Below are positions 2,698-35,915 of a DNA stretch of 64,000 nt, one piece after another. A program made the translations under genes and the position numbers. The first letter of the stretch is position 1, and every line of letters starts with the position of its first letter. Below the pieces are notes generated by a model. It was not told where the DNA came from, did not search any database, and was given only the letters and a program-made list of their open reading frames with translations. Origin of the DNA: Phycisphaeraceae bacterium (GTDB taxonomy: Bacteria > Planctomycetota > Phycisphaerae > Phycisphaerales > Phycisphaeraceae); NCBI GenBank assembly GCA_963674705.1, contig OY771506.1:2048001-2112000 (forward strand). The letters are read 5' to 3'.

Positions 2698-3126
2698 TCA
2701 CTTAAGTCCCAATAGACTGCTGATGTCCCGCCAGAAAATCCAATCAGGAAAGGAAGCGTTTGCGTGAAAAGCCAAGAACACTTCGATTGCTTGGTCAATG
2801 GTAAACCATTCATTGCTCTTCAAAGCTACTTCGCTACCTGCAAACCGCAACTTTGTGTCATCGGGAAATGCTCTATTTTGTTTTTCTTGATAAGCCCGAA
2901 AATGGTAAAGTGGTTCAACCGTTCGTTTTTCAATCATGCAAGTTGCGCCTCCACCGGCGACTTGCACATAATTGCCGTGGTTATCTTCCAGTGCAGCAAA
3001 CTCATGCCGACCGGTCAACTTGAGTCTTCTTAGCGTTCGCTCAACTTCTTTAGCCGTTGGATTTGTAACCGCAGGTGCGGATTCCATTGTAAGGATCATG
3101 TAAGCCTCGATATGCCTATTTGACAT
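2698..3126 (-). CDS. Immunity protein, Imm1-like, cognate to the RHS nuclease toxin (likely start ATG 3099)
   Basis: Lies directly downstream of the toxin stop and is AT-richer. The C-terminal pattern EWFTIDQAIEVFLAF...FPDWIFW resembles the Imm1 family. GAGG lies just upstream of ATG 3099. Confidence 0.7.
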   Translation of the reverse strand: MSNRHIEAYMILTMESAPAVTNPTAKEVERTLRRLKLTGRHEFAALEDNHGNYVQVAGGGATCMIEKRTVEPLYHFRAYQEKQNRAFPDDTKLRFAGSEVALKSNEWFTIDQAIEVFLAFHANASFPDWIFWRDISSLLGLK

Positions 3127-6100
3127 AAATTGTCTGGACTCCGAATATTTTTTGACCGGCTAAGGGCCCATCACCCAAGATAACCGCATCACGCGTGTGT
3201 TGCACGTGTATGTCATTGAGTCGTTGCAGTGGTGTTTTCGACGCAGTTCCGCTTTTGACTTCAATCCCCCACAAACGTCCTTTCGAATCAAGAACGACAG
3301 CGTCATAGCGACGCGTGCTTACCAATCCGCGCACAGTTACCTGCTCACCTACAACATTGACACCTTGGTCTCGTAGTCCTTGGACGACAAGCTTCTCTCC
3401 GGGAGTTCCTGGAGGAGCCGCACCGCGAACACTAGCGAACTTTCCGTCTGGGGTTCGGATGCTTCCGTCGGGATACACGCGAGTGGTTTTCGCGGGTCTG
3501 ACACCTATTGACCCAGAGGTGTCAAGCGCATTGTCAACTTTAGTCCACTGGCCGTCAATTCTAGTGACGACATTGTCTACAGTCATCATATCATCTGTAA
3601 GCCTCAGGCCGTCATCAACCAAGCCGCTACCACGGAAGACCCATGCACCTATAGCCTCACCGCCCATTGTTTCGGTTGCCAATTGGAAGGCATCAACCTG
3701 TAAGCTTGCACTGAAGTATTTGTCTGTGATGCCATAATCCCCAGCCCAGTAACGGTTTTCAACAGTAGGCAATCCATAGCCCATCATTGCATTCATTTGT
3801 GCTTGAGATGAGCTATTGTTGGCGATTGTAGCCAGAAGGTTCCACGCACCTCTGCCGGTATTCTCGATGGCATTTCCTGCGCCCGCATAATAACTAATGC
3901 CGAGATCAAAATATGTATCAGAAAGCACAGGTATCGAAGATAAAGGATCCTGGAAGAACTCGTTATGTATATCGTAAAGATTTGATGGTAGTTCTCCTAC
4001 CAGCACTATGGAGTCAGCTATACGAGGAGATGCTACATAAACATTACTCATATAGGATTTGCTGGTGTATATATCTAGTGTCTGGTATCCAAATTCGTGG
4101 GCATATGGCTCTTGTGCAAGACTTGGAGAGGTCTGCATCAGGAAACCCGCTACTACTCCTCTAAGAACGGTTTCTCGTGTTACAGTGTAATCCTTGTAAT
4201 CCTTAGAATCCCAATCGTGACCAAAGTTTTTGAATAATGCTTCACTCGGCCTTGCATATTCGTCTTGTTTTTTCCAGTATTCCGGGGACTCACGTGCAGG
4301 ATCATTCAGTATGGCGTTGGCTAATCCGGCCCCTATCAATTTGCCACCAAAACCCGACGGATCCACATACATCAGTGGGTTATTCATGACGTACGCATAG
4401 AGGTTATACCCGTCCACATATCCCGCCGGATCGCGTTGCAGGAAGCGGCCGAGGGTGGAGGAGTACATGCGGTTACGGTAGTGCCACAGGCCTTCGGAGA
4501 CGACGGCGGTGTTGCCGGTGGGGTCGGTCTCAGGGTCGTAGCGTCTGCCGGTGAAGCCGTAGGGGTTGCCGACTATTGATATATTGGGTTGTGAGAGGCT
4601 GGTGCGTGTGGTCCAGCTTCCACCGTAGTTGATAAAGGCGGTCATCCCGCCGAAAGGCTGGTAGCGGGAGCGTTCGGTGACGTCGCCGGTCCAGCTTGCC
4701 AGGGCGACAACGGAGTACCGTCTGTCCTGGAAGTAGTAGAGCTTCTCATCGTAGACATGCTCTTCATTGATCAGGAATGCCGGCGAATCGACGTAGCTGT
4801 TGTATGCGTAGCTCTTGGCGTGGATGATCAAGGTTGGTAGACCAGTGCCGTCGGGGTCGTAGAGGTCCATCACAACACGGCTGCCGTCGTATACGTAGAA
4901 GTGCAGCGATCCGCTGGAGCCCTTACGCATCGCAACCCGTCGGTTCAACGCGTCGTAAGCGTATTCGGCCTGAAGCCTCCAAGTGCCGGCGCCCGCAGCG
5001 TCGTACTGCTCTGCCTTGACCAAGCGGTTGGCCCAGTCGTAGGTATACAACAGGTCATCGTTGGCGGGAGAAGACTGATTGGCACCGATATAGATCAGGT
5101 TACCACGGTCGTCGTAGTGGCGATTGGTACTGGGCGCACCGGCACCGATGGCGGTGTATTCGTTGTTGCCGCTGACCACGTAGTTTTCTACCGAGCCGTT
5201 CTGGTCAGTGTTAGACCAGTTGCCGACCTTGTCGTGGTCCCACTCTGTATCGTTCGAGGCGTTGGGTGTACCCGACGGGCCTTTACGGGTTAGCCGGTGT
5301 AGCTCGTCGTAGTCATAGTAGTCGGTGATGGGAGTGGAGCCGCCGATGTAGTCGGTGATGGCTTCGGTTTTGATGTTGCCGATGGCGTCGTAGGTGGTTA
5401 CCTGCCGGAAGGAATTGGTGGTTGGGTTGGCATTGCGATCGTATCGGCGCTCGGATTCACGGCCACGGGAATCGTAGGTGAGTTGGAGAGTGTGGCCGAG
5501 TGTATCCGAGCCAAGGACCTGTGACGTAAGTCGACCGGAGTTGTTATAGGTGTACCGGGTGTCGGTTACACCCATGGATTCGACCTTACTCAACAGTCCG
5601 CGCATGTTTTCCTTGTAGGTGATGGTGCGGCTGATCGTGGGGGTCTGTGGGGTATAGTCGGCGTAGAGGTCCTTGGTGATGATTCGGGAGTCGGGGCTTG
5701 TCCCGGCGGAGTATGTGGTCTTGACGGCGTGGGCCCGGGTGGTGCCGACGTAGCTGACTTCTTCGAATGTCCGGCCAGCGAAGTCGTAATCTAAGTCGAC
5801 GTTGTATGTAACAGGGGTGCTCAGACCGGCATTCGTGTCGCTGGCAGTAGTAATCCTGGACAGCTTGTCGTATTCGAACTCCTGAAGCGGGACCGCGATA
5901 CCGGTTGTATCCTCGACTGCTTCGACACGGTTAAGATTGTCGTAGGTCCGGGTGATTTCTGTGCCGTCACGAAGTGTTGTGATTTCGGCGTTACCGTTCA
6001 GGTCGTACCTGACGGTTTGCACTTCACGATTGCTCAAGTCGGAGGGGCCGTAGTCATAGGTATAGGTGACACGGTTGAGTTCGTCGTAGGTATAGCGGAC

Positions 6101-9100
6101 GGCTTCTTCATCGTCCTCGTCCGTGTCAATCGCTACACGGTATTCTCCGGCTTCGCTGATGTGGTTGCCATCGATGACGGCAAGCAGGTTGCCGTTGGGG
6201 TCGTAACGGAACTTGGTGATGGATTCTTCGGTTTCCCCCAGGGCTTCGATGGTCCGGACGACCCGGCCGTTGGCGTCGTAATCCTTCTGGGTGATATTGC
6301 CGTTGGCGTCCGTGACACGGGTCTGTCGGCCGTTGGCGTCGTACTCGAAGCGTGTGATCGCCTCGATCACCGAGCCGGGGGCCTCGATCAGACGAGTGAG
6401 TTGACCGCGTGCGTCATATTCGAAGACGGTGGGGGCGTCGTTGGGAGTATCTGACTTGATAATCAGGCCTCGACGATCGTATTTCCAAGAGGCGGTTTCG
6501 ATACCGCCCAACTCAGTCTTAATGCGTTGACCGGCGGCGTCGGCGTATGTGGTAGCGGTCACGCCGTATGGGTCTTCACTTGTGACGGTGTTGGTGTCAT
6601 CGTCGTAAGCGGTTGTACTTGTCAGGTTGGTTCCAGAAGGATCGCCGACGATGGTTTTGATGAGCCGATTTAATTCATCGTACTCGTAGGTGGTGGTAAA
6701 TTCATCGGACGTGTTAAGCGCGCGGACTTCCTGAATGACGTTCCCTACGGGGTCGTATTCATACTGCGTGGTGACTTCTTCGGATGTAGATTCGGCCTGG
6801 GTAACCGTCAGAGTCCGTCCGAGCACATCGTAGGTCATCCGGGTGATGATGCCTTTGGGGTCTTTGATGGACAGGGCGCGGCCAAGGCCGTCGTAGGCGG
6901 TGATAATCTCGGGTTCGGATTGGTTCTGGTCATCAAGCAACTTGACGTATTGCGTGACTTTGTAAGGCTCGCCGAAGTCATTATAAGTAGTATAGTTCTG
7001 CTCATTACTACGTGCGTCGACGGTTTGCGTCAGCCGACCATACCCGTCGTACTGTAACTCAACCGGGACAGTGAGGAGCCCTTCGTTATGAAGGGGGGTG
7101 TATTGTTCTACGACCTGGTTGTTCTCGTTGTATTCAAGTGTTGTTCGTTCGCCTAGCGGTGAGACAGAAGCGATTTGGTTACCGAATCCGTCGTACTCAT
7201 AAGTCGTTGTGTAGCCCAAGGCATCCCGTGTCGAGACTTGACGGCTCAATGCATCGTAGGAAGCGTAGGTGGTGAAGCCTTCCTCATCGGTAGCACTGAT
7301 TTGGTTGCCATTGCCGTCGTAGGTGAATGTGCGGGTGTGTCCTAAGGCATTGGTTGAGGCGATCAGTTCATTCCGCTTGTTGTATGCGAATTCGGTTTTC
7401 CTGGTGTAAGAATTCTCGAAGCCGTCGATCAGATACCGGGTCCTTACCAGGTTGCCCGCGGCATCATAATCCTTCACCGTTTTATGCACGGCCGATGATA
7501 CACCGTCCACATGATTGACAGTGATCGAAGAAGTCTTGATACGTCCTAAGGCGTCGTATGTGACCTCCGTGGTGCGGAAGTCGGATGCGGCGCTGGTCGG
7601 ATCCGTAGCATAACTCGCGAGTTTCGTATCTTTCAGGGTTGTCTTAATACGAAGGTTGCGGTCGTCATAGTCATAGTGGACGTGGCTCTCGGGCACGGTT
7701 TCCCATGCGGCAGGACCTGCGTCCGGGTCCCATGCGAACATCATCTCATCGGTGAGATTGCCGGCCTCATCGTAGGTGTAGGTAGTCCGGCTCAGGTAGT
7801 CTGAGGCAGATGGAGTACCTGTCGTTTGGTTGACAACGGTCGCACCCTTGATGCGTTCTTCCCGCAACCTACCGAGGGAGTCGTGCTCATACTCGATGGT
7901 GCGTATATTGTGTGAATTCGGGTCGTCGCTGTTACTGATAGTCTTGATCTTGCGGTTTAGCCGATTGTAGACATACTCGGTCGAGAGAGATTCCACAAAT
8001 ACAGGGGACTCGCTGGTGTTATTCTCGCCGTAGTATCCGATGGTTTCAAGAGTCAGGTTACCACGCTCGTCATATTCGAACTCGGTAGCACGCTGATCGC
8101 CCCATGTTTCCCACCGGCGGATAAGACCGTTAGCTTTGTCATAGGTGAAACGCGTGGTACGTTCTTCACCGTCAGCAATAGCGGTGGTTTCGGTGAGGTT
8201 GCCGGCGCCGTCGTATCGGTTGCGAACTTTGTCTCCCAATGCGTTGGTTGTCTGAATCAGACGATTCAGTTCATCGTACTTAAATGTTGTGGTGTTGCCA
8301 TTCGCATCGGTAGTTGCGATGCGGTCTCCCACGGCGTCATATTCATAACTTGTCACATGCCCGAGTGGGTCGGTCTGGGTTGCGATACGCTCGAAGTTCC
8401 GGCCGTAGAACGGCGTGGTATAGGTGATAGATGAGACCGCTTCAAGTGGATTCTTTGTTTTAACGAGTCTGCGATTCTCATCGTATTCGTTAATGGTCAC
8501 CCCGCCCGCGGCATCGACCAGCCGTGTTGGCTGACCGTAGGCATTCAGTTCGACCTGAGTGGTGTTGCCGTCCGGATCGGTTGTGGCGATTACACGTCCG
8601 AAGTCGTCGTATGTATAGTTTGTGAATCGTCCGAGTGGGTCTTTTGTGCGGACGTTATTCAGGCCGTGTATGTCGTAGAAGTATTCTGTAACGGCGTTAT
8701 CCAAGTCGCTGCCGGAACCGTCATACTGACGGATTTTCTCCGTAAGCATGATCAGATTCCCGTACTTGTCGTAGTCATATTCGGTAGTGTGCTTTTCGGA
8801 ATCTAGTGATGCACTAAAGTTGCCTGTAAATTGGAGTTCGCCATTGCCATTGAGTACCGGAACGCCGTCCGCATCGACGATTAATTCCTTGACGTATATA
8901 CCGATATGGCGTTTGTCAACCAGGATATCGATACCGGGGTCGCTGCTGTTGTACTCGAGATAGGTCTCCAAAACATCGATGTGGTAATCATCTCCCCCAT
9001 CATGCTCGATCTCGTCTACCTGGGTGTATTGATATTCCGGACGGTTCTCGTCGTTATAGATGGTTGCCTGGGTATCACCTTCAGGCGTGGTGAATGAAAT

Positions 9101-12100
9101 CAGATTGCGTTTATCATCGTATTGAAAGACAGTCCGGTTGCCGTTGCCGTCGGTCTGAGCAATCAGATTGTGCTGTTCATCATACTCACGGTACTCGATG
9201 GCTCCATCGCGCGTATTAGCGCGGATCATATCGCCGTTCTTATTCCAGAAGATCTTGCGGTAGAAACCGGCTTCGTTCCACGTTTCTGCATAACGGTTCA
9301 ACCAGCTGTATTGGAAGTAGAATGCATCGTTGTTGCTGTTGATGTGGTGAGATACCGTATCGTCCTTAAAGTAATAGATCTCCAAGTAATCCCCTGTCGG
9401 AAGGATCTGCTTGGACATGTTGTGGTTATTCAGGACATTGTCTTGATTCTTCAGGTACTCGTAGCGGTAGACATTGCCTTCGAGGTCCTTGAACCAGATC
9501 AGATCGTCGCCGTCGTAGCCGTATTGTGTTGACCGCCCGTTGTAATCAGTAACACGAATGACATGATCGTCGTCGTTGTATGTTAAGGTCAGGCTCCGGC
9601 CCAGTGGGTCGGTGATCCTTGTTATATTCAGATCTGTGTCGTATGTGAAGGTCAGGGTGTGATCTAGTGCGTCGGACTTCTCTTTCAGTTGTCCGTCGGC
9701 ATTGAACCGATAAACCCTGCCGTCGTTATGGTGAATGGCGTAGCCATTCGTGTATGTCGTATCGGGCTTGAGTTCGAAAGTCGAGCCTGGGGGGGCCTCA
9801 TATACACCACTGCCCTGATCTTCGAAACGATAGACCTTGCGACTCGCGTCCGAGTAGATAACGTGAGTGAGTTGGTTGTTTTCCGAATCCGTCAGGAAGG
9901 TCAATGTGTCTGCGTGGGACCATCCCCAGCCGAAGCCAAACGGGCCGTTATATAATATGGTACTGCCATACCGTCTGGTGACTTCCAGGGGCATGCCTCG
10001 GGATCGAATCATTAAATCGGCGGGTTCCTCAAGGTAAAATTCGCCGTTGAAAAGGTCGACGGGATCACCACCCGAGACGATTATCACATCGCGATTGGTG
10101 GTGTTGGATGTTTCGCTGGAGATATTCTGGATGTGAGTTGTGGTAGTACCGCTGGCGTTATCCTCTGTGACTGTCGACGCAGTGTAGTTTTTCTTCTGAA
10201 AGTCTGAAGATAAGTCAGGCGTCCCAAGGTTCGTATTGAGGGTAGTCGAGGAGGAGGTATTCAGGCGTGTAACGGTGTCATAGTCATACCAGGACCTACC
10301 GCCGTTGAACTGCCCGAAGAGCCAATTTGTTGATCCTTGTTCGGATTGGGTGATGCGAAGGTCGGATTCGACATACGGATTGCCTTCAGGGTCTTTATAC
10401 ACCACGAGGTCGGTGGGGGTCGTGGTGTTCACCCCGTCATAGCCGTGGAAAGTAAGGGAAATGGTGTCGACCCCAGTGGTGATTACGAAATCTCCAGAAG
10501 TACTTGCGTCGAGTAAGAGATTCCCATCGGCGTAACCCGCTTGGATTCCATCGATGGTGTCGTAGTAATCCTTTAACTCTTGAATGCGGTCCAGACTGAA
10601 GTCGACCTTGGCAACGAGCACGTCGCTGGTGATCGGATCGAATGCAACAAGTGCTGTATCGTTGTCGTACTTCCATTGCCCGGAGTCGAATACAACAGCA
10701 ATAAAGTGGTCGTTGTTGTTAGCGTTAGGCGGAGAGCTGTTAAAGCGTTCATGCACAGATTCGGCACTGTACATGATGTACCCCACCCCGGTAGCGGTGT
10801 CGCGTGCGGCGATAACGTTACTATGACTTAGTTTGTCCACACTGGTCGCAGTGGCAGTAACGTCGTTATAAATCTTTGCTTCAATTGCGAGCGCAGAATC
10901 AGTTTCGCCAGGGATAATACTCTGGATGTCAGCGAGTGATGTACCGCTGCCGATGGTTACTATATCGATGCCATCGCTAATAGCGGCAAACAGCCCTTCG
11001 ATCGTCCCAAGCGCAGGCGTCCCCTGCCAGTCTTCGAAGATAGCCGATTCATTGTACGATGCGGCGGTCCCCACAACAGTGCTTTGGAATAGAGCCAGTT
11101 CGTCACTGCCCTTGAAGATCTCCGGCGATGCGGCGTTACTCTTATAGACGTAACTGGACGCGAACAGTGCGTCGATCCGCCAGGCGGGGCTGACATGTCC
11201 AAAGCTCGCACTGTTGTACTGGCCGGTTGGAACACTATCTTCTTCATCCGGGTAGGTCCAGATCAATACCGCCATGCGATGTTCATTGAAGCCGGCATCA
11301 GGGAAAGTGTTGTTGACCGTCAGTTGGTAAGGCGAGTGATGAACGCGGTTAGTCCAAAGCAAGCTATCGAGCCGTCGTGCGTTGCGTTCGAATCGCTCGT
11401 TATAAGCCTCGGTCAGCAGGTCACTCACACGACCGAGGTATAGTTCGTATGTGTCTGGGCTGTTGTTGAAGGATAGTCGTGTTGCCAGCTCATCAAGCTC
11501 TTCTGCGACTTCATAGATTCGCTCGCGAGACGCGGCCAATGGATCGAGTGCGATGTTGACCAGGGCGTTAGGTCGTATGGATGGACGTTCTGTATAAGGG
11601 ACGGTGCCAAACCTGTAGCCGACGGTAAAGCTGTCGGAGAAAGTAACCGTCTCATCATAAGTTTTCTCTGCTGCTTCCAGGAAAGCGCCGGTACCAGAGT
11701 TCAGGATCTGGCCATCCAGTTTCAATCGTGGTGAGGCGGTGTTGTGTTCGGTGCTTTCAAGATCGGTATAGGTACCTGTATTGAAGTCAACAACTAAGCG
11801 TCGACCGGCGACCTGAGGGAGCATAACTCTGGTCTTAATCAGGTTGGCTTCTGCCAGGGTTGTATCTTTTGCATCCTTTACTTGAACGCCGTTTAAGGCT
11901 TTGTTGTAGACTCTAACATCATCGATTAGGCCCGAAAACCAGTTACCGCTACCGGTGGTTGTCGCGAAGGCGGTGCCGTTGAGTCGACCACCAAGGCCGC
12001 TCATAGTATCCGTGGTCCCATCAACACCTATCACATCTATCGGAAGAGTATTATGTGTATGGTGCACGCTTGCAACGGAATCTCCATCGAGTCTGATTCT

Positions 12101-23881: not shown

Positions 23882-24028
23882 GCGTAATTACCGCGCATCA
23901 TTGATCGGAAGCCAGATGCTTGTGACCAATGAATGCAACATGCATGGCAGATTGATGAGTGTTGACTATCAACCTGATTGACGCACCGGCAAAACACTTG
24001 CCGCAAATAAGCGCGTAACTACCGCGCA
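23882..24028. promoter_or_regulatory. Pair of 16-bp quasi-palindromic direct repeats in the divergent intergenic region (candidate operator)
   Basis: GCGTAATTACCGCGCA (23882-23897) and GCGTAACTACCGCGCA (24013-24028), 15/16 identical. Confidence 0.35.
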
Positions 24029-24547
24029 CGTGCACTTACAGCTTTAGTTGTATTTAGGATCCTCCCTGATCCCCCATCCAGATAAGATAGCACAACGTAC
24101 CCACACGATCAGATTCAGGCTGGTAATGCCGGAAACAGTGGGCTAATGAACCCCCAAGATAATGGTATAACACGGCGAGAAGAAGGCAAACATTAAAGCC
24201 CGGCTCTCTTATGATGACCTATGTATCAGCAGCCGATATCAAAGTCAAGGATATTTTTATTCCATCTGAAAATTCAAAGGCATTATCGTGATTACTTCAT
24301 GTCGTCAGGTATAGACGTCTAAGACAATCTTCTAATACTATGTAGATTGTCGGATGTCGAAGATCGGCAAGTGTACATGCGCTTATACGAGACCAGGAGA
24401 ATCTGGAATGTGGTCCAGATGCTTCTTTAGAAGATGAATCTACCAAGGATTATATTCTCAGAACAGCAAGTATATGGCATGTATTACCAGAACCTTCTTG
24501 CTAAACTATATTGGGCGACTTAGGGATGCCCTTCGGGAGTTATATAC

Positions 24548-26800: not shown

Positions 26801-26826
26801 TCCGTTCGCGTGCAAGGTAGATAGCT

Positions 26827-28566
26827 GTGGCAAATAGCATCCTGTTAGAACTGGCCGAGGGGGTTCAACGGCAAGCCGAGGTTGAAGGCTCATCGCTTTC
26901 CGATGATTGGCTGGATGCTGACAGCGTGAGTCGGGCGCGTGATCCGCTTGCCTTACTGATTAAGAGTGCGAATGAAAAGGGCGTGAGTGAGGCGGCGGTG
27001 TGTCGCGCTGTGGCAGACGTATTAGGCGTGCCTTATATAGATAGCCTGGCGGGTTGTGCGGTATCGGCTGACTTCATGGATGCGATCCCGATCCACTTCG
27101 CCCGCAGGCATCAGGTCGTGGGGCTCGCTGGTGGGGCGAATGATGAACTCGAACCGATCACAGTGGCGACGGCATCACTGAGCACGGTTGATCGTGTATA
27201 TGAACTGAGCCGGTTCCTCGGACGCAAGGTGCGGCCGGTGATTGCGACTTCCAAGCAGATCCAGGCATCGATCAACGTGGCATATCAGAAACAGGAGGGG
27301 CAGGCGAAAACCTTTATCGATCAGATCGATCGCAGCGATGTACTGGATGAAGTCTCGCGTTTATCAGAGCATGAAGACCTGCTCGATGTTGATAGCCGGG
27401 CCCCGGTGATTAAGCTGGTGAATCTGATTTTGTTTGAAGCAGTCAAGGCGCGCGCTTCGGATGTGCATATTCAGCCGTATGAAGAAACGCTAGTCGTGCG
27501 TTTGCGGATTGATGGCGTGTTGTACGACACGTTCGATGTGCCCAAGCACCTTCAGGATGAAGTCATCAGCCGGATGAAGGTGATGGGGAAGATGAACATC
27601 GCCGAGAAGCGTCTTGCACAGGATGGTCGTGCCGCGGTGCAGATCGGCGACCGGATTATTGATCTTCGCATCGCTTCGCTACCGACCAGTTTCGGGGAAC
27701 GGGTTGTGATCCGTCTATTAGATAAAAGCTCGGAGTTATTCACACTCACAGAGTTGGGCATGCCGGGCAAGACGCTTGAGCAGTTCCAGTCTCTTATCGG
27801 TTACGAGCATGGGCTGATCCTGGTGACGGGTCCGACGGGCAGCGGGAAGACGACGACGTTGTACGCTGCATTGCAGCAGGTAAACGCGACGGAGCGGAAC
27901 ATCCTGACACTTGAGGACCCGATCGAGTATCAGTTGCCGGGCATCAGCCAGACACAGGTGAGTGAAAAGAAGGGGCTGACGTTTGCACATGGATTGCGAA
28001 GCGTATTGCGTCAGGACCCGGATATCATCATGGTCGGCGAGATCCGCGATCACGAAACAGCGGTGATGGCGATCCAGTCCGCGTTGACCGGTCACCTGGT
28101 ATTTTCGACGTTGCATACCAATGATGCGCCCAGTGCGGTGACGCGTTTGCTTGATCTTGGTGTGGAGCCTTACCTGGTTGCAAGTTCGTTGGTGGGTGTG
28201 TTGGCGCAGCGGCTTGTCAGACGTGTATGCCGATCGTGCGTGACAGCATATGAGCCGACAGAGAGAGACTTGGTAAAACTGGGATTAAGTCCGGAGGATA
28301 CCGACACGGCTGGAATGCGCAGCGGCGGAGGGTGTGAGGTATGCCGACAAACGGGATACGTCGGGCGAGAAGGCATATTTGAACTGTTAACGGTAAACGA
28401 TGCGGTGCGTCATTTGATCCAGACGCGCGCCAGTGCATCGCAGATAGGCCGGGCCGCCGTAGAGTCGGGTATGGAAACATTGCGCGACGCCGGGCTGGAG
28501 AAAGTGAAGCGAGGCGTGACGACAATCGATGAAGTGGTGCGTGTGACGACGAGGATGCAAGCCTGA
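26827..28566 (+). CDS. gspE: Type II secretion ATPase
   Basis: ASDVHIQP, Walker A GPTGSGKT, LRQDPDIIMVGEIRD, STLHTND, and a tetracysteine motif. Confidence 0.95.
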   Translation: MANSILLELAEGVQRQAEVEGSSLSDDWLDADSVSRARDPLALLIKSANEKGVSEAAVCRAVADVLGVPYIDSLAGCAVSADFMDAIPIHFARRHQVVGLAGGANDELEPITVATASLSTVDRVYELSRFLGRKVRPVIATSKQIQASINVAYQKQEGQAKTFIDQIDRSDVLDEVSRLSEHEDLLDVDSRAPVIKLVNLILFEAVKARASDVHIQPYEETLVVRLRIDGVLYDTFDVPKHLQDEVISRMKVMGKMNIAEKRLAQDGRAAVQIGDRIIDLRIASLPTSFGERVVIRLLDKSSELFTLTELGMPGKTLEQFQSLIGYEHGLILVTGPTGSGKTTTLYAALQQVNATERNILTLEDPIEYQLPGISQTQVSEKKGLTFAHGLRSVLRQDPDIIMVGEIRDHETAVMAIQSALTGHLVFSTLHTNDAPSAVTRLLDLGVEPYLVASSLVGVLAQRLVRRVCRSCVTAYEPTERDLVKLGLSPEDTDTAGMRSGGGCEVCRQTGYVGREGIFELLTVNDAVRHLIQTRASASQIGRAAVESGMETLRDAGLEKVKRGVTTIDEVVRVTTRMQA

Positions 28567-29783
28567 TGCCTGTTTTTGCGTACAAGGCGTTATTGAGTGG
28601 CGAACACGGACCGCAGGCCGTGACGGGCACACTCACAGCCGATTCACCCCGACAAGCACGGGACACGCTTCGATCGCGCGGCTACACCATCCAGCATGTC
28701 AGCGAGCACCGTGAAGCGATTGGTTACAGCCAATGGCTAAGAAAGCTGCCGGGGCGTAACTACCAGACACAAACCACGATATTTGTCGGCGAACTGTCAA
28801 CACTGCTGGGTGCGGGCATCCCGTTGATCGATGCGATCGACACGATCCTGAAACAGCTCAGCGGGGCGTTCCATAACGCTATCCTGCAACTGCGGGACCG
28901 TATCGCAGCAGGGACAGGTTTGGCCGAAGCGATGCGTGAGCAGCCGCGTGTGTTTGATGAGTTGACTGTGACGATTACGGAAGTCGGGGAAAACGCAGGC
29001 ACACTGGATACGGTGCTCGATCAATTAGCGCGGTTCAAGGAAAGATCTCTGCAATTCAAAGGGCGTATCGCCAATGCCTTGATCTACCCCTGCATCGTAC
29101 TGCTACTTGGGGTAGGCGTGAGTCTGTTTTTAATGACGTATGTGTTGCCTAACATGCTTAATGCATTGGTTGAGGCGGACCGTGAATTGCCTTGGATAAC
29201 GAAACTGGTCAAGGGCTTGAGTGATTTTCTGCTCTACCGTTGGTGGGCCGTGTTGCTGGTTGTTATGGCCGGTGTGCTGGTGTTTGGGATGGCATCGCGT
29301 TCGATGCGGTTAAAGATGCTTTGGCACAGGGCACAATTGCGATTGCCTGTACTTGGTGTACTGATCCGCAAACAGGCGATCGCGCGGATAGCGATGGTGA
29401 TGGCGACACTGCTGAAGTCGGGCGTGGAGTTTGTTCGTGCGATTCAGATCGCGCAGCGGACCACGCAGAATCTTGCCTTACGGCAGGCGATTGCGCAGTG
29501 TGAGGCCGCGGTGCAGGCCGGTCAGGACATCGCGGACGGGCTTGAAGATACCGGGGCGTTTCCCCCGACGGTGTTGCAGATCTTTTCTGTGGGTCAGCAA
29601 TCCGGCAAGCTTGAAGCGATGCTAGACAGGCTGGCCGGCGATTACGATCAGCAAGTGGCACTGGCATCACAACGTGTCGGGGCGATGCTGGAACCGATGC
29701 TTATTCTTGTCATGGTGATGATGGTGGGAGCGATCCTCTTCGCGACGATCCTTCCGATCCTGGAGACTGCCAATGTGTTGTAG
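28566..29783 (+). CDS. gspF: Type II secretion inner-membrane platform protein
   Basis: MPVFAYKA start, LLGAGIPL, GENAGTLD, IYP, and GQQSGKL; two T2SSF domains with TM helices. Confidence 0.93.
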   Translation: MPVFAYKALLSGEHGPQAVTGTLTADSPRQARDTLRSRGYTIQHVSEHREAIGYSQWLRKLPGRNYQTQTTIFVGELSTLLGAGIPLIDAIDTILKQLSGAFHNAILQLRDRIAAGTGLAEAMREQPRVFDELTVTITEVGENAGTLDTVLDQLARFKERSLQFKGRIANALIYPCIVLLLGVGVSLFLMTYVLPNMLNALVEADRELPWITKLVKGLSDFLLYRWWAVLLVVMAGVLVFGMASRSMRLKMLWHRAQLRLPVLGVLIRKQAIARIAMVMATLLKSGVEFVRAIQIAQRTTQNLALRQAIAQCEAAVQAGQDIADGLEDTGAFPPTVLQIFSVGQQSGKLEAMLDRLAGDYDQQVALASQRVGAMLEPMLILVMVMMVGAILFATILPILETANVL

Positions 29784-30225
29784 CGGTAAGCAAAATCAAA
29801 TACGAACGAGTCATAGACGACAAGCCTTTTCGTTGATCGAGATCCTTGCGGTGCTCGTGCTGATCGGGTTGGCGGCAGGGCTGATCGCTGTGAACGTCAG
29901 GCCGCTGATGTCCAAGGGCAAGCAGAACGCTGCCAAGTCGGATGTCAGCACGATCGTCAGTGCGCTCGAGGCGTATTACATGGCGGTTGGCGAATACCCG
30001 AGTAATGATGAAGGGCTCGAAGTCCTGAAGCAGAAGAACGAACACTTTGATGAACCGCTTCTGACTAAGGGATTGATCGATCCCTGGGGAAGGCCGTACC
30101 AGTACAACCAACCGGGTAGCGGTGATGAACCTTACGAAGTGTTCAGCTTTGGCGCGGATGGCCGAAGCGGTGGCGATGGACCGGATAAAGATATTCGCAG
30201 TGATGATGAACCGGAACAGGAATAA
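29773..30225 (+). CDS. gspG: Major pseudopilin
   Basis: A|FSLIE prepilin site, YPSNDEGLEVL, DPWGRPYQY, SFGADG...DI. Confidence 0.92.
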   Translation: MCCSGKQNQIRTSHRRQAFSLIEILAVLVLIGLAAGLIAVNVRPLMSKGKQNAAKSDVSTIVSALEAYYMAVGEYPSNDEGLEVLKQKNEHFDEPLLTKGLIDPWGRPYQYNQPGSGDEPYEVFSFGADGRSGGDGPDKDIRSDDEPEQE

Positions 30226-30744
30226 ATGCTACATTCCACCCAACGAGCATTTACACTTATTGAGGTGACAGCCGTACTGGTGCTGGTTGCTTTGCTATCG
30301 ACTGCGGCTGCTTTGTCGCTCAAGAGTGCTTATCGTGGTTCACAGATGAGCGACGTTGTCGCCCGCGTCAGTGCGATGGACCGGACGGCCCGGCGTCTAT
30401 CTATATCCCAAGGGACGGCTGGAAGCATCATTATCGATCAAGCGGAGGGAAGCCTGCGGTATAAGCAAGCGGGTAAGACGAAGGATGAATTGCTCCCCGT
30501 CGTGTTGCCCGCTGACTTTCAGATGACGTCGGTCTACATTATGGGTGCGGCTAAGCATGAACACACAGTCATACCGTGTTCGCGGGAAGGCAGGACGCCG
30601 AGTTATTCATTAACGCTTACAGGGCCCGGAGGATCATCGCATGTGCTGATGGTTGCCGGTTTAACCGGGCAGGTATTGGAATTGGAGCCGGATGCGAGCT
30701 TCGAAGTTGACAACTTGTTGTCCGCGCGGCCTGACACTGATTGA
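30226..30744 (+). CDS. gspH: Minor pseudopilin, GspH-like
   Basis: RA|FTLIE prepilin motif; position after gspG. Confidence 0.7.
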   Translation: MLHSTQRAFTLIEVTAVLVLVALLSTAAALSLKSAYRGSQMSDVVARVSAMDRTARRLSISQGTAGSIIIDQAEGSLRYKQAGKTKDELLPVVLPADFQMTSVYIMGAAKHEHTVIPCSREGRTPSYSLTLTGPGGSSHVLMVAGLTGQVLELEPDASFEVDNLLSARPDTD

Positions 30745-31252
30745 AGTGGTGGCGGGTCTTGCGCTGATGGGCACGCTGTTGGCCGGGATGCTGACCGCCA
30801 AGAGCCGTTTTACGCGCCAACAGGTTCAATCACAGCGTGTGTTGGTTGCTGTTGAAGCACTGGATGCTTTACTCATCGAGCGTTGGGACGAGTTCCATGT
30901 AATACAGCGCGGTTCGCATGGCGACTTTGATGGTTTGGAAGACATGACCTGGCGAGCGTCAATTGTTACGAGCGGGGCGGCAAGCGACTGGCACTGTCGG
31001 GTTATCCGTATCGAGGTATTAGACCAGGTGGAGCGTTCGAGAGGTGAATCGCTTGCCAGTGTTGAACTCTTGGTGCCCGACCCCGTCTATCTGAAAGAGT
31101 TGGCGAATAAGGAGGATGCAGAAGCAGATAAAGAGCAGGACAATCCAGAAACACGGGAATCGCCGGGTGAGAAGCAGGAGCAAGAGAATGCGCCTGCTTT
31201 GCCGGATAATGAAGCAGAACCCGGGCCGGTTGTGCTGGGGGTATCCTTATGA
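30692..31252 (+). CDS. gspI: Minor pseudopilin, GspI-like
   Basis: RG|LTLIE prepilin motif; gene order. Confidence 0.65.
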   Translation: MRASKLTTCCPRGLTLIEVVAGLALMGTLLAGMLTAKSRFTRQQVQSQRVLVAVEALDALLIERWDEFHVIQRGSHGDFDGLEDMTWRASIVTSGAASDWHCRVIRIEVLDQVERSRGESLASVELLVPDPVYLKELANKEDAEADKEQDNPETRESPGEKQEQENAPALPDNEAEPGPVVLGVSL

Positions 31253-31818
31253 ATAGGTGTGGTGGCTTTACATTAATTGAAGCACTCGCCGCGACCGCGC
31301 TGGCGGCAATCATGATGACAGCCGTCATGACGGTTGTATCCGCACTTGCTCATGATGATTCACGGCAAGCCAATGAGTCTGAACGTGAATCGTGGCAACA
31401 GCGCATGATCGAGTTGGTTGAGCAAGACCTCCGCTACAGCGATTCGGTCACGGATCAGGGCGATGGTGTCCTGATGACAGGACATCTTTCGCTCGATCAA
31501 GATACGCTTACGCCGACACATCGGCCGGTGCAGGTTTCGTATCACATTCGTAAGTTTGCGGATAAATCCTGGTTGATCCGTTCGCAGACAGACCTAGAAA
31601 GCCGGGCATTGGACAATAGCTGGTCTGAGGTGGTGTGCTCGGGAGTCCGTGCTATTAAGGTGATGAATGCCCAGCAATCCACATCATCCGCCGCTAATGA
31701 TAAGGACCAAACAGATTCGTTGATAGATCAAGCAGTGGCAATGGATACCGCTGTCGTGACAATTGTCTGGGATACGCCGGATGAAGATGCAACGACGTTT
31801 AATCTTGTTTTACGTTGA
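31249..31818 (+). CDS. gspJ: Minor pseudopilin, GspJ-like
   Basis: GG|FTLIE prepilin motif; ATGA overlap with the previous gene. Confidence 0.7.
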   Translation: MNRCGGFTLIEALAATALAAIMMTAVMTVVSALAHDDSRQANESERESWQQRMIELVEQDLRYSDSVTDQGDGVLMTGHLSLDQDTLTPTHRPVQVSYHIRKFADKSWLIRSQTDLESRALDNSWSEVVCSGVRAIKVMNAQQSTSSAANDKDQTDSLIDQAVAMDTAVVTIVWDTPDEDATTFNLVLR

Positions 31819-31821
31819 AGT

Positions 31822-32826
31822 ATGATGCAATGCAGCAGTAAAACATCCCGACGTGGCTTCATCCTGGTGCTGACCTTGATGCTTTTGTCCATCGCGGCGG
31901 TAGCGATGGCGGCGACGGCAAGGTCGAGCACCGATCAGGCGGTGGCTGCGGTTCAGGCGCGGCGTGATTTACAGCGGGCATGGGCCAATCGCAGCATCCG
32001 GCATACTGCCTTGACGCTCGCTCCAAGTCTCCTGGCAGATGAAAGTGCATATACCACGGAATCGACACCGGTGCGCTCAATCACCATCCAATTGAATAAG
32101 CATGACTACAACATCATCCTGACAGACGAGCAGGCAAAGGTGAATATCAACGCACTTCTGGCAAATCGTGGCCGAGAGGCGGCGCGTTCGTTTGCTGTCA
32201 AGCAACTTGCTGATTACCCGAACTTCATGGGTGTTTATCTGCCTGTCACTACGGACCAGTCTGATGAACAACAAGATCATGGTAAGAATGAATTGCCGCG
32301 AACGATCATTGGATTCAATCATCTATTACCTGACTTCGATCCGGATGAGTTGTTGAAGGAGCAGGCAGCTCCGTTTGATGCGCTGACGTGTTGGGGTGAT
32401 GGTCGGATCAATATTAAGCTCGCACCGGAGACATTGCTCAAAGAGGTTGCTTCGCCATTGCTTGGCTCGATACAGATCAAACGACTGCACGACATCACTG
32501 CGGAAAACGATGACATCACACTTCAGCAGGCACTTACTGATATCGGTGTCGAAGAGAAGAACATCCCGGCATTGCTGAAGCGTATGACGATGGATTCGCG
32601 TTGCTTCGGTGTCTGGATCATGATGGATGATGGTAGACGCGATTGGTGTGAATTCAGCGTCATCGAGTTGGCTTCCAATGCAGAAGATAAGCGGGTTGAT
32701 GTGACAGGGACTAATCATGAAGAACGATTAAGGGCAGAAGCGGTCGATGTGAATAACATCGGCGATACATCCGACTTCGTACAGTCGAGCGATGCATACC
32801 CGAGGCTCCGAGTATTTGAGTGGTAG
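31822..32826 (+). CDS. gspK: Minor pseudopilin, GspK-like
   Basis: RRG|FILVLTL (no Glu5), DEQAKVNIN, GRINIKLAP. Confidence 0.85.
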   Translation: MMQCSSKTSRRGFILVLTLMLLSIAAVAMAATARSSTDQAVAAVQARRDLQRAWANRSIRHTALTLAPSLLADESAYTTESTPVRSITIQLNKHDYNIILTDEQAKVNINALLANRGREAARSFAVKQLADYPNFMGVYLPVTTDQSDEQQDHGKNELPRTIIGFNHLLPDFDPDELLKEQAAPFDALTCWGDGRINIKLAPETLLKEVASPLLGSIQIKRLHDITAENDDITLQQALTDIGVEEKNIPALLKRMTMDSRCFGVWIMMDDGRRDWCEFSVIELASNAEDKRVDVTGTNHEERLRAEAVDVNNIGDTSDFVQSSDAYPRLRVFEW

Positions 32827-32830
32827 TTGC

Positions 32831-33382
32831 ATGAACCTGAAACGTCGTAAACAGTTCTGCTGGCTTCTTGCCGTGCTCTTGATGGCCGGGGGTGTCGCGG
32901 TTGTGTGTTTGGCGTTTGTGTTGCCTTACGCTCAGCCAGATACCATTGAAGTGAAGACCAAGGCGGTTCAACGAAAAGCCGGGCAACAGCAAGACAGAGC
33001 TGTTGAGCTAGAGCAGTTTACGGGTCTGTGGGATAAGAACCTGCGTCCGCCGTTGATTGATGCGCCCAAGGAAGTTGTGCCTGAGAACACACAAGCGAAT
33101 GTGCCGAAGCCCAAACGCCCGGATATCAAACTGATCGGGTTTGCCATCGAATCCGAGGGTTCATTGGCGATGCTCAAAGCGCCGGACAATTCAATCGCCT
33201 TTGTGGGCGTCGGTGAAGAACTGCAGGGGGTGACGGTGCATGCGATCACCGCAGAAGGCGTCACTTTGGACTTCAACGGGGATCGGTACTTGCTACCGAT
33301 CGACGAAGAGGCGGACGCGGCCCGACCGACACCTAATATTCGCCGGGCCGATCGGCGCAGTGAAAGGCCGGTGAGGTACTGA
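32831..33382 (+). CDS. GspC/PilP-like periplasmic T2SS component
   Basis: N-terminal TM helix, Pro-rich linker, and a beta domain (IKLIG...AML...VGVGEEL.GVTVHAI..EGVTL) typical of the GspC HR domain. Confidence 0.65.
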   Translation: MNLKRRKQFCWLLAVLLMAGGVAVVCLAFVLPYAQPDTIEVKTKAVQRKAGQQQDRAVELEQFTGLWDKNLRPPLIDAPKEVVPENTQANVPKPKRPDIKLIGFAIESEGSLAMLKAPDNSIAFVGVGEELQGVTVHAITAEGVTLDFNGDRYLLPIDEEADAARPTPNIRRADRRSERPVRY

Positions 33383-34746
33383 TGATGACACGCGCCGTGA
33401 TATTCCTGGATGATGAGACCTGGCGCATCGTTCTGACGAACGCGGTCGACAGCGATACCGATGTCATTCGTGTCAATGGCGATATCCCGGAAGCAGGTAA
33501 GGCCGATCAAGTCTATGAGTATTTACAACAAGCGGGTTGTCTCGATCGGCCGGTGATTCTTGCATTGCCATCTTCATGGTGTGCAGCCGGTACGGTCTCT
33601 CTGGATGATCTACCGCGCAAAGATCGGCGTGAAGCCCTGGCGTATCGCCTTGAAGAAGTGCTGCCCGTGGCTGCGGAACACTTTTCTGCAGACTTTATAT
33701 TTCACAAGCATGAAGCGCTGGGTGTATGCGCGATCCATGAAAAGATCAGGCCCATTGTTGATGCGTTTGAAGCGCGGAATATATCAATCCATACGATCGT
33801 GCCCGCGGCACTACTGATCGCGCAAGCGTATTCAAAGGATAAGCAGGATTCGAACGCCAATGTCCTTATCTGGCGGCACGACGACTGGTGTGATGTGATC
33901 ATGCTTGATGAGAAGCGCCAAAACGCGGTTGGCTGGTCAATGCTGTCGGATGAACCTGAATCGGTGTTGCTGCATCTGAATATGTGTGCGCTTCGTAATC
34001 GGACAGTTCGCGGCGTGGTGTTGTTAGATGATCAATCGAGTCCTGGTGTCGACTATTCTAGCTGCGTGCCTGAAGCGATTGGCCTGAACCGCGTGGAAGA
34101 TGATCCGTATCTGGCTGGGACCGAGTTGGCGGATCAGATATTGCATGGGCAGGTTGAATCCTGGATCGATCTGAAAGATGAGACACTCGGGGGTGTGGGT
34201 TGGGTGAAGCAGATCGGTAAGCCTTTCAAGGCGGTGCTGGTGGCAACCTTGTTACTGTTGTTGTGTGTGAACGGTGCGTTACTGTGGCGGGCGGGGCAAT
34301 ACGACAAGCTTGCGGACGATTACCGTGCTAAAGAGCGTGCCATCTATGAAGACCTGCACCCGGGGCAGGCGCCACCGCTGGCGATCAATATGCGTCTGGC
34401 GGGTGAATTAAGGAAGCACCGCGGGATGCAGGGGCAATCCGAATCACTTCCCGATCCACCTGCGACGTTGTCATTATTGCATGATGTACTCGGCAAGCTA
34501 CCCACCGAGATACGGCTGCGAATACTCGAGCTGCGCATCGAGGATGACCAGGTGTACCTGGATATGCAGAGCCGGTCTCAACCGGATGTGGCGGCAATCA
34601 AAAACGCGCTTGATGGCGGGGGGATACGTGCGGAAGTGATGCATGCCGATAGATTGCAGGGCGAGTCGGGCTTTGGCTTCATGATTGTTGTTAGCCAGGA
34701 AGAGGCTTCGGCTTCCGCAGGTGATCGGAAGGAGGGGGGCGCATGA
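33382..34746 (+). CDS. gspL: GspL-like T2SS protein
   Basis: Actin-like cytoplasmic part (VILALPSSW, ALAYRLEEVLP), one TM helix and a periplasmic domain; gene order. Confidence 0.75.
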   Translation: MMTRAVIFLDDETWRIVLTNAVDSDTDVIRVNGDIPEAGKADQVYEYLQQAGCLDRPVILALPSSWCAAGTVSLDDLPRKDRREALAYRLEEVLPVAAEHFSADFIFHKHEALGVCAIHEKIRPIVDAFEARNISIHTIVPAALLIAQAYSKDKQDSNANVLIWRHDDWCDVIMLDEKRQNAVGWSMLSDEPESVLLHLNMCALRNRTVRGVVLLDDQSSPGVDYSSCVPEAIGLNRVEDDPYLAGTELADQILHGQVESWIDLKDETLGGVGWVKQIGKPFKAVLVATLLLLLCVNGALLWRAGQYDKLADDYRAKERAIYEDLHPGQAPPLAINMRLAGELRKHRGMQGQSESLPDPPATLSLLHDVLGKLPTEIRLRILELRIEDDQVYLDMQSRSQPDVAAIKNALDGGGIRAEVMHADRLQGESGFGFMIVVSQEEASASAGDRKEGGA

Positions 34747-35276
34747 ACCGCGATTCTGGTTTTAGTCGAGAGGCACTTCTGGTGGCCGCTGCCGGGCTGG
34801 CGCTATTGATGGTCACGTTCTGGAGTTATGGTCGATTCGGCGCAGCTCGTCAACGAGCGATTGAAGATGGCGACGCCTGGGCGCAGAGCGATTTACTGTC
34901 AGGACAGATCAAGACGCTGCGCGATCAACCGGCGCTTGCCAACGATCGCGCGCTTCAACAAGACGATATGACCCAGCGCATCGCCGATGCCGCCGCTTCC
35001 GCATCCCTGGATGAAAAGAAACTGATCGCTGTCGAACACCAGAAAGCCCGTCGGATCGGTCGGACCGCTTATCTGGAAGAACCGACCCGACTCACATTCA
35101 AGGATGTATCGTTAAAAGAAGTCTTGACATCATTGTATGCGTTAACCGGAGACGACCCCCGGCTGCATGTGTCATACCTGAGGCTCGCAGCACCGCGAGG
35201 AGAAGGTGACCCCATGCTCTGGTCTGCGGATGTAACCGTTACCTACCTGATCTATGACCCTATTGCTAAACCTTAA
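34743..35276 (+). CDS. GspM/PilO-like T2SS protein
   Basis: N-terminal TM helix, coiled coil and ferredoxin-like C-terminus; ATGA-coupled to gspL. Confidence 0.65.
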   Translation: MNRDSGFSREALLVAAAGLALLMVTFWSYGRFGAARQRAIEDGDAWAQSDLLSGQIKTLRDQPALANDRALQQDDMTQRIADAAASASLDEKKLIAVEHQKARRIGRTAYLEEPTRLTFKDVSLKEVLTSLYALTGDDPRLHVSYLRLAAPRGEGDPMLWSADVTVTYLIYDPIAKP

Positions 35277-35285
35277 ACGCTTAGA

Positions 35286-35915
35286 TTGATGGATGTTCTC
35301 ATGAAGTATTCAAGAGTATGTTTACGTATGTTGATGGCAGCGATGTTTGTCTGTGTCAGCGGATGCAAGACCCAACAAGCAGGGGTCGGTGCAAGCACAG
35401 GTAACTACGAGACCGTCGCCCGCGATTCGCTGCACGACACCGAGGCGGCCAAGAAACACAACGCTACTGGCTTAGAGGCACTTGAACAGGGCAATTTCGA
35501 TGAAGCGCAGCAAGCGTTTGAAAAGGCCCTTGAAGCCGATGTGATGTTCGGTCCGGCCCACAACAACCTCGGCCAAGTCTATTACGCGCAGAAGCTTTAC
35601 TACAAGGCCGCGTGGGAATACCAGTACGCAATCAAGCTTATGCCGAATCAGCCCGAACCTAGGTGCAACCTGGGTCTGGTCTACGAGGCGGTGGGTAAAC
35701 TCGATGACGCGGTTGTGCAGTACGACGAGGCTCACGAGTTAGAACCCGATAACGCAATTTTCATCGGCAACAACGCCCGAACACGCATCAAACGGGGCGA
35801 CAAGGATGAGCATGTGAAAGCCCTGTTGTCGGAACTCATTATGAAGGACACACGTTCGGAATGGGTCGCCTGGGCGGAGAAGAAGTTGGCACTCATGTCA
35901 GGCGGACAGCCGTAG
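35286..35915 (+). CDS. TPR lipoprotein, probable pilotin (PilF/PilW-like); likely start 35301
   Basis: Lipobox VSG|C, TPR repeats (AHNNLGQVYY, RCNLGLVYE); last gene of the T2SS operon. Confidence 0.75.
   Translation: MMDVLMKYSRVCLRMLMAAMFVCVSGCKTQQAGVGASTGNYETVARDSLHDTEAAKKHNATGLEALEQGNFDEAQQAFEKALEADVMFGPAHNNLGQVYYAQKLYYKAAWEYQYAIKLMPNQPEPRCNLGLVYEAVGKLDDAVVQYDEAHELEPDNAIFIGNNARTRIKRGDKDEHVKALLSELIMKDTRSEWVAWAEKKLALMSGGQP

Follow-up and report, generated by a model that had tools for sequence, protein, structure and literature searches.

How does an RHS polymorphic toxin that carries a signal peptide leave a Gram-negative cell? The question is raised by a 64,000-nucleotide stretch of contig OY771506.1 from a Phycisphaeraceae bacterium (the window), in which five minus-strand genes, one of them for an RHS toxin of 3865 residues, lie back to back with a gsp operon for a type II secretion system (T2SS). 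Outer-membrane crossing of such toxins has hitherto carried the default label 'Sec/T2SS', with no gene signature attached, and this locus family offers candidates for the machine and for adaptors, together with a conserved partner. Genome comparison suggests that the locus is probably an instance of a Planctomycetota system in which an accessory T2SS exports RHS polymorphic toxins for interbacterial competition, a reading built on the established anatomy of the locus, the clade of its operon, their linkage, polymorphic toxin tips and the exchange of cargo. If it is true, the T2SS joins the routes for caged polymorphic toxins, and the size limit of the secretin is put to the test.

The layout given in the preliminary description is accurate: the five-gene minus-strand unit, the 711-bp gap and the operon from gspD to a pilotin gene are all present as open reading frames (ORFs). 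The twelve plus-strand genes (24548-35915) follow the order D-E-F-G-H-I-J-K-C-L-M-TPR lipoprotein. Domain scans of the window proteins with Pfam and NCBIfam, together with motif inspection, give the following features.

2698..3126, minus: candidate immunity protein of 142 residues, Imm1-like, no signal peptide, overlapping the toxin stop
3116..14713, minus: RHS polymorphic toxin of 3865 residues, with putative signal peptide, apparently inactive transglutaminase, two LamG domains, DUF6531, YD/RHS shell, autoprotease motifs and a 411-residue C-terminal extension
3119..3520, minus: toxin tip, putative restriction-endonuclease-fold nuclease (E3790, D3804, E3818-x-K3820)
14787..20702, minus: partner protein of 1971 residues, with an adhesin-like variable N-terminal part and a conserved core
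20789..22135, minus: helical protein 2, 448 residues, with putative signal peptide and conserved C-terminal domain; candidate periplasmic chaperone or adaptor
22172..23836, minus: helical protein 1, 554 residues, of the same family; weak TPR-like atlas leads (<0.85)
23837..24547, no strand: divergent intergenic region, 711 bp, 44% guanine plus cytosine (GC), read from the sequence
24548..26800, plus: GspD secretin (N0, N and secretin domains by Pfam; TIGR02517 302 bits, under the 351 cut-off)
26827..28566, plus: GspE ATPase (TIGR02533 630.5 bits, just over the 630.25 cut-off)
28566..29783, plus: GspF platform protein (PF00482; TIGR02120 the best match, under cut-off)
29773..30225, plus: GspG major pseudopilin (TIGR01710 104.8 bits, over the 88.85 cut-off)
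30226..32826, plus: minor pseudopilins GspH, I, J and K (N-methyl motifs in H, I and J; weak GspH/XpsI/GspJ/GspK matches)
32792..35276, plus: GspC, GspL and GspM (weak matches below cut-off; order conserved in the clade)
35286..35915, plus: TPR lipoprotein, PilW/Tgl-like probable pilotin (TPR; TIGR02521 and Tgl the best matches, under cut-off; lipobox-like VSGC)

The same gene order is present in G424 and G420 (G, L and C labels denote the genomes, loci and contigs compared; G000 is the window's own genome, one contig, 96.6% complete). Window positions 8001-28000 are covered in one piece by one public contig, which may be the source of this DNA. An assembly chimera is rejected as an account of the locus.

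The operon belongs to an accessory Planctomycetota gsp clade that is separate from the housekeeping copy. The window's GspD falls in a 62-row clade (SH-aLRT, the Shimodaira-Hasegawa-like approximate likelihood-ratio test, 96; three rows, two long-branch and one partial, left out), apart from the second complete gsp cluster of G000 at ~1.65-1.66 Mb, and the GspE tree agrees; both are quick trees with SH-aLRT support only. The second cluster groups with copies from G424, G001 and G369 (SH 100), and G000 also holds several pilus-type clusters. That the window operon is the housekeeping gsp copy is rejected on these two trees, which agrees with the dedicated T2SS put forward in the preliminary description. 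Clade GspD is found at E 1e-60 in 24/401 genomes of the phylum and 81/401 of the class, some of these matches (G299, G097, G158 and one G637 copy) lying outside the tree clade. The TPR lipoprotein gene is present in nearly all clade operons examined.

RHS genes recur beside this clade. Linkage was scored as an RHS-core match within 25 kb of a secretin, and the first sample was picked by GspD alone, without G000. An RHS core lies near 7/23 clade secretins (one of the seven matches being below the family cut-off) versus 0/113 other secretins; after inspection of the DNA, 11/23 clade loci have RHS genes, 5 a TonB-receptor module, 2 other genes and 5 end on cut contigs. In a second sample of 70 further genomes with 82 loci, counted by hand, 21/82 are RHS-linked (19 by a core within 25 kb, 2 by inspection) and 18/82 carry DUF3450, the marker of the TonB module. 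The control in 22 of its genomes, hand-chosen for few contigs or a known link, gives RHS near 13/28 clade secretins versus 4/102 others. The RHS-gsp association foreseen in the preliminary description thus appears in both sets, and no p-value is attached to it because kin are not independent. The RHS proteins linked to the clade belong to at least four families whose N-termini are dissimilar, the transglutaminase being confined to the window's family, and an N-terminal hydrophobic stretch is present in 24/24 full-length linked RHS proteins versus 16/479 internal segments. The three copies of the operon in G420 each adjoin a different RHS gene, the RHS gene of G156 is nested within the gsp operon, and orphan tip cassette arrays trail several linked RHS genes. 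This recurrent adjacency points to a toxin export route that has not been described.

Further layouts were seen around secretins inside and outside the clade. In G156 (C1:6447553-6470675; L110, L111) the gsp genes have been rearranged about an RHS gene whose tip is phospholipase A2-like, and a leucine-rich-repeat gene comes after it. On G004 C20 (L126-L127) and G240 C66 (L124) a clade secretin faces an RHS gene with no gspE found directly after it, a layout in which the secretin, standing alone, may serve the toxin. On G443 C12, G538 C50 and G636 C1:1.72 Mb an RHS core also lies within 16 kb of a secretin that is not in the scored clade list; two of these three secretins form one family of 670-690 residues. 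Apart from these, secretin domains lie in open frames of 4,200-5,000 residues in G117 C26, G351, G269 C86, G189, G041 C13 and G538 C51, and likewise in G616 C15, G645 C8, G640 C29, G443 C24, G732 C4 and G702 C7.

Comparison with G420 reveals an exchange of cargo beside a conserved machine. Window positions 19981-23898 are 90% identical between the two loci, 24643-36016 are 94% identical and the left flank 92-94%; within the 17-kb cargo (2700-19980), alignment is limited to short patches of 64-76%. Machine and helical genes have been kept, as have the 240 opening codons of the partner gene, and the toxin, barrel and immunity genes have been replaced or have diverged far faster.

The helical genes are part of the gsp module and travel with RHS-linked loci, and their predicted co-occurrence with such loci is borne out. 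The preliminary description regarded the two helical proteins as paralogues; they are similar, with a likeness confined to ~110 C-terminal residues (27%, E 4e-7). The family has no Pfam, NCBIfam, PDB or strong atlas match and no likeness to the TPR pilotin, and a protein search returned 5 close members only. It occurs in 24/401 class genomes; of the 23 besides G000, 16 are among the 80 with clade GspD, and 14 have a helical gene within ~15 kb of an RHS core or clade gspD (two genomes lie outside the RHS test, G557 was part of the query alignment, and the neighbourhoods of nine fall outside the DNA reading). Most often the operon is followed, across the divergent gap, by one or two helical genes and then RHS, and other RHS families have other small genes in the helical-gene slot. 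By analogy with T2SS chaperones encoded next to their substrates (PMC4713064), the helical proteins may be chaperones or adaptors.

Structurally, the toxin is a caged polymorphic toxin of a class that is already known. The preliminary description had put it forward as a new candidate, and this part is withdrawn: signal peptide, inactive transglutaminase, RHS array and variable, swappable tip were described together by Zhang et al. in 2012 (PMC3482391, section 19 and Table 1; statements about cited papers refer here to the accessible part of their text). The N-terminal hydrophobic stretch comprises residues 6-16, by the hydropathy script that was applied to all four proteins encoded upstream of the immunity gene; each has one such stretch and no later transmembrane segment, which agrees with the signal peptides proposed earlier. 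In the partner the stretch is late (residues 43-59), so the true start of that protein may be further downstream. Transglut_core (PF01841) occupies toxin residues 156-245, with GNEWDQ at 197-202. Glu199 stands at what we take to be the Cys position, Gln242 presumably at His and Ala269 presumably at Asp, and the residue at the Cys position varies across homologues; the transglutaminase thus appears inactive, its catalytic C/H/D having been lost. Two LamG stretches are inserted, a conserved middle domain follows (~955-1300), and DUF6531 (1549-1628) precedes RHS repeats, with the Rhs core ending at 3454 (TIGR03696, 64.5 bits vs a cut-off of 32.5). The shell end bears bipartite DPxG autoprotease motifs, DPAG3428...DPSG3451.

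The toxin gene is the only RHS match in G000. The earlier statement that no PAAR, VgrG, Hcp, TPS, WXG or TcdB-type domain is visible is confirmed by the Pfam and NCBIfam scans, which found none of these and no SpvB/TcdB domain in the toxin locus; VipB, VgrG and SpvB have no match in G000, and a search for ShlB, a TpsB transporter, had no match in any control genome and is uninformative. A search of 401 phylum genomes with the 1200 N-terminal residues gave LamG and distant transglutaminase matches only.

The tip is a putative, intact-looking nuclease of restriction-endonuclease fold. The last 125 residues of the toxin match the ends of 13 other proteins, including RHS and haemagglutinin-type toxins, and E3790, D3804 and E3818-x-K3820 are kept in the alignment of these homologues. 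Its atlas neighbours are Tox-REase-7/-3/-9/-5 at 0.88-0.91, which is a lead only. The 142-residue gene probably encodes the immunity protein, weakly Imm1-like: it has 26 homologues, including some from Burkholderiales, and full-model Imm1 matches fall below cut-off in 3/15 homologues scanned, the window protein itself giving none. Its GC content (45%) is the lowest of the locus, and the gene at this position differs in G424, G420 and G416, being replaced where the tip is replaced. We consider it very improbable that the tip is not an active toxin and that the RHS protein, with its partner, serves mainly as an adhesin or surface structure. The abundance of LamG, FG-GAP, PKD and cadherin-type domains and the weak immunity assignment are in keeping with that idea; against it, tips differ between homologues (one alike pair only among 14 window-type tips), the window tip is common to haemagglutinin-type and RHS toxins with its catalytic-type residues kept, and the downstream gene changes along with the tip.

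The protein encoded directly upstream of the toxin, 1971 residues long, is its predicted binding partner. It comprises an FG-GAP propeller of five repeats, PKD/Ig domains and a C-terminal squalene-cyclase-like barrel. The core (residues ~1285-1765) consists of two FN3/Ig domains and the alpha/alpha barrel, with a DNND motif at 1572-1575, and its fold model over the aligned core has a predicted local distance difference test (pLDDT) score of 87.9; a single-sequence fold of the C-terminal 802 residues was discarded (pLDDT 33). The closest fold to the barrel is squalene-hopene cyclase (Z 24.5, root-mean-square deviation 2.7, 245 residues aligned), and PDB sequence searches gave only distant single-domain relatives. 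The barrel shares its fold with class II terpene cyclases and the alpha/alpha barrels of thioester-domain proteins, the DNND standing at what we take to be the cyclases' DxDD position. Unlike those relatives, it lacks a thioester motif, is apparently exported and is predicted to accommodate a protein loop in its cavity.

Genome comparison shows that toxin and barrel form a pair of wide range. Altogether 41 loci were collected, 14 by a metagenome scan with one loose pattern and 27 by a genome scan with an exact degenerate pattern requiring Trp, so that both samples are incomplete. The same 480-residue core lies directly upstream of the RHS gene in 28/28 window-type loci with upstream DNA in view, the other 13/41 being 10 of a transglutaminase family without RHS, 1 of a different Myxococcus subfamily, 1 fragment without upstream DNA and 1 edge hit. 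By record titles, the pair spans Desulfobacterota, Myxococcota, Gammaproteobacteria, Arcobacteraceae, Lentisphaerae, Scalindua and Phycisphaerae. The stretch in front of the core varies from ~150 to >3,000 residues and bears adhesion-type domains, and on G415 C111 a 20-residue linker with no signal-peptide remnant joins the core in frame to the transglutaminase.

A complex model supports binding of toxin and partner. The compact homologous pair of L061 scores 0.66, versus 0.00 for the best control, a level reached by 116/157 solved complexes and 2/215 mismatched pairs, counts that apply only roughly to custom alignments. Runs agree in at least 87% of contacts with a partner pLDDT of at least 84. 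In the model the barrel cavity, which DNND (1572-1575) and GWG line, receives a conserved LPxSLP-type loop (window toxin 642-651), and the predicted interface residues are conserved on both sides.

Several relatives of the pair stand apart. L044-L049, L052, L060, L067 and L072 encode related transglutaminase proteins of ~1,000-1,260 residues that lack RHS and often follow giant genes; L067 and L072 also have a weak barrel homologue two genes downstream, possibly a split form of the same system. In an Arcobacteraceae genome (G406 C27:346039-368017) the pair has a 3816-residue partner and an orphan RHS cassette downstream. The partner gene of G420 (C1:4902452-4908555) and the RHS gene of G001 (C1:815326-823753) are each in two ORFs, through decay or assembly error.

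Taken together, the neighborhoods divide the locus into two modules with different ranges. The five minus-strand genes had been described as a single unit, and as one conserved unit this is rejected, because the toxin-barrel module crosses phyla, usually without gsp genes, and the helical-gsp module is a Phycisphaerae module that takes other RHS families too. No helical member occurs in the fetched non-phycisphaeran toxin-barrel loci, and a search without positive control found no barrel domain in five helical-gene genomes. Among the 24 genomes whose positions were compared, the gsp operon is divergent from the pair in G424, G420 and G422, all Phycisphaerae by title or class draw (the G422 locus being the same as that of G557).

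This division bears on an alternative that we regard as unlikely, namely that toxin and machine share an island and are exported separately: the T2SS would serve other cargo (the adhesin part, surface proteins or the partners of receptors), and the RHS protein would leave through the general T2SS, in vesicles or by lysis. The observations that favor it, and with them several others, weigh against export of the toxin by the neighboring T2SS. Outside Phycisphaerae, 18 window-type genome loci were examined, 13 of them on contigs of at least 38 kb, and a secretin lies within 25 kb of the pair in only 1/13 (G408, with gsp genes of another lineage), so the pair needs no neighboring machine; two such loci on closed chromosomes have their nearest secretin >390 kb off, and gspG is found elsewhere in 5/5 tested non-phycisphaeran pair genomes. 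Many neighbors of the gsp clade are not RHS genes: 23 clade loci have the TonB-receptor module instead (5 seen, 18 by DUF3450), FN3 and subtilase genes adjoin the operon of G416, one of the closest (its GspD is 69% identical to that of the window), and 43/82 second-sample loci have neither cargo, including those of the closed genomes G637, G757 and G591. The preliminary description had named beforehand, as grounds for giving up its reading, a housekeeping copy kept by relatives without the toxin; the operon is no such copy, and the second half of this holds in part, because the clade also occurs with non-toxin neighbors. Moreover, 3/19 core links of the second sample are orphan cores only, and kin are counted among the links. 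Transposases flank the locus, and since both modules sit in islands flanked by insertion sequences (IS), co-location can be partly historical. A type VI secretion system (T6SS) sheath gene is present in 3/5 RHS-linked genomes tested, and on G189 C1 it lies (912591) ~26 kb from the linked RHS gene (938338-945117). The complex was folded for the homologous L061 pair with custom alignments, not for the window proteins. Lastly, the toxin at 3865 residues exceeds the T2SS substrates known to us.

Against separate export, RHS genes of four or more families repeatedly stand in a tight divergent or nested layout, RHS genes are almost never near other secretins, each of the three G420 copies has its own RHS gene, and RHS and TonB modules occur together in 0/82 loci. 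The five fetched TonB loci form one nested subclade and RHS links occur in both main branches, which suggests that RHS is the older cargo of the clade. Sheath genes are absent from G000, G636 and G736, and VgrG from the five genomes searched; export of RHS toxins by the T2SS, if true, would name a main competition weapon of planctomycetes, some of which (these three) have no T6SS sheath gene.

The TonB module comprises PEP-CTERM-type proteins (one TIGR02597-like), a TonB-dependent receptor, DUF3450, two ExbB, ExbD, TonB and a TPR protein, and it leads straight into the clade gsp operon on G136 C53, G046 C17, G356 C33, G117 C5 (L108) and G395 C25. At G046 C53:16991-24651 (L120, L121), two genes that by eye are multicopper-oxidase-like and a repeat protein precede the clade operon.

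The composition of the operon is relevant to a further alternative, that of a contact apparatus, in which the gsp-like machine would not release the toxin in soluble form but would assemble its complex, display it or push it where cells touch, as the Tad-like Kil apparatus does in Myxococcus killing. A very large cargo with adhesion domains, a TPR lipoprotein of the type IV pilus (PilW/Tgl) kind and the precedent of a described Tad-like killing apparatus (PMC8460266) are compatible with this. GspG and GspE, however, pass T2SS cut-offs, GspC, K, L and M are present, the operon has no retraction ATPase, and this clade also serves TonB-receptor loci, in keeping with ordinary secretion. A contact apparatus is a doubtful account, and we give it little weight.

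Under export of the toxin by its neighboring T2SS, Sec would carry the toxin, the barrel protein and the helical proteins across the inner membrane, as their N-terminal hydrophobic stretches suggest. In the periplasm the RHS shell would fold around the C-terminal extension, and the inactive transglutaminase module would dock through its LPxSLP-type loop in the partner's barrel cavity, in line with the predicted model and the natural fusion. The variable N-terminal domains of the partner, with the LamG domains of the toxin, may provide adhesion or target binding. The helical proteins, judged by gene position, might be chaperones or adaptors on the cargo side of this T2SS clade, and the T2SS, judged by linkage, would pass the complex through the outer membrane, either to be released or to be displayed on the surface. 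Motifs and knowledge of the family suggest that DPxG autoproteolysis would free the tip, that the tip would cut target-cell DNA, and that the cytoplasmic Imm1-like protein would shield self and kin. A fuller proposition, on which we are evenly divided, is that Planctomycetota have a dedicated T2SS lineage whose first task was to export signal-peptide RHS cages of 2,000-4,500 residues, that its toxin cassettes are interchangeable and its cargo-side adaptors come from several families (the helical one plus at least two other small ones), and that TonB loci took the lineage over later. The window would then have adopted a toxin of two proteins found across phyla, with a dead transglutaminase that plugs into a terpene-cyclase barrel, likewise dead, carrying adhesion domains. 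If true, this would be a new delivery route for RHS proteins, and the toxin probably the largest known secretin cargo.

Compared with known systems, the locus is a polymorphic toxin system variant that brings known parts into an undescribed, recurrent combination. The window toxin has the architecture of the Zhang 2012 class, which is placed there under the 'T2SS/Sec-dependent' default route with no signature neighbor gene for that route in Table 1 (PMC3482391). The main text of that paper, except its final part, does not contain 'secretin', 'pseudopilin', 'Gsp' or 'prenyltransferase', and that final part, Figure 5D and Additional File 1 may show such neighbors. The dead transglutaminase is proposed there to anchor the toxin by binding peptides, whereas the prediction for the window toxin is that this module binds a barrel protein dedicated to it. 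With the T6SS toxin Rhs1 of Photorhabdus (PMC8636562), the window toxin shares a YD shell, an aspartyl-protease plug with two DPxG motifs and, probably, a cleavable tip and an immunity gene. Unlike Rhs1, it has a putative signal peptide in place of PAAR, VgrG and EagR, its shell is ~2x as long, and its extension has 411 residues versus tips of 9-20 kDa in a cage that fits <25 kDa. The PAAR/VgrG linkage of T6SS-delivered Rhs proteins was not found at the locus, in a genome with no VipB or VgrG match, nor were the SpvB/TcdB N-terminal domains of the Tc toxin BC cocoon found in the toxin.

The machine shares with the canonical T2SS (GspC-M,O) the full core set, a prepilin peptidase in trans (none in the operon, two copies 1.25-1.3 Mb away in G000) and candidate chaperone genes beside the cargo; in Acinetobacter, T2SS chaperones (CpaB/LipB) are encoded adjacent to substrates and the prepilin peptidase is shared in trans (PMC4713064). 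It differs in the order D-E-F-G-H-I-J-K-C-L-M-TPR, in a cargo that is apparently a caged polymorphic toxin and in a helical family without known homologue. A link between T2SS and antagonism has a parallel in Serratia, where the system has a role in bacterial competition with substrates that were not identified and the accessible text does not contain 'Rhs' (PMC13729183). Omnitrophota, likewise of the Planctomycetes-Verrucomicrobia-Chlamydiae (PVC) group, have T2SS-like loci before giant genes (bioRxiv 10.1101/2023.11.21.568195), a secretion locus beside very large exported proteins; the cargo there consists of membrane-anchored giant proteins beside a hybrid Tad/gsp locus, not of toxin-immunity modules. 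In the accessible literature, to which supplements and most subscription papers do not belong, no account was found of RHS genes accompanied by a gsp operon dedicated to them, nor of the barrel partner.

Outside the two modules, the flanks carry mobile-element genes.

742..1569, plus: IS-type transposase/integrase on the left island flank (rve_3, E 1.5e-13; positions 1-1570 are 92% identical in G420)
1895..2449, minus: truncated Mutator-family transposase on the left flank (Transposase_mut, E 3e-34, model positions 12-135 of 379)
36236..37333, plus: IS-type transposase on the right flank (rve_3 and HTH_32)

A promoter scan of the 711-bp region found one sigma-70-like site versus 1.8 expected by chance, and since this count does not exceed chance it gives no evidence of a promoter there. 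Farther downstream, window positions 46033-53712 hold a cluster of a histidine kinase, a response regulator, an NMT1-type ATP-binding cassette transporter and a methyltransferase, and a third rve transposase lies at 55263-56381. Nearer the operon, 41940-43277 encodes an SBBP beta-propeller with a PEP-CTERM tail, and 38659-41763 an exported protein of 1034 residues with a C-terminal domain of 70 residues that the genome matches at least 60 times.

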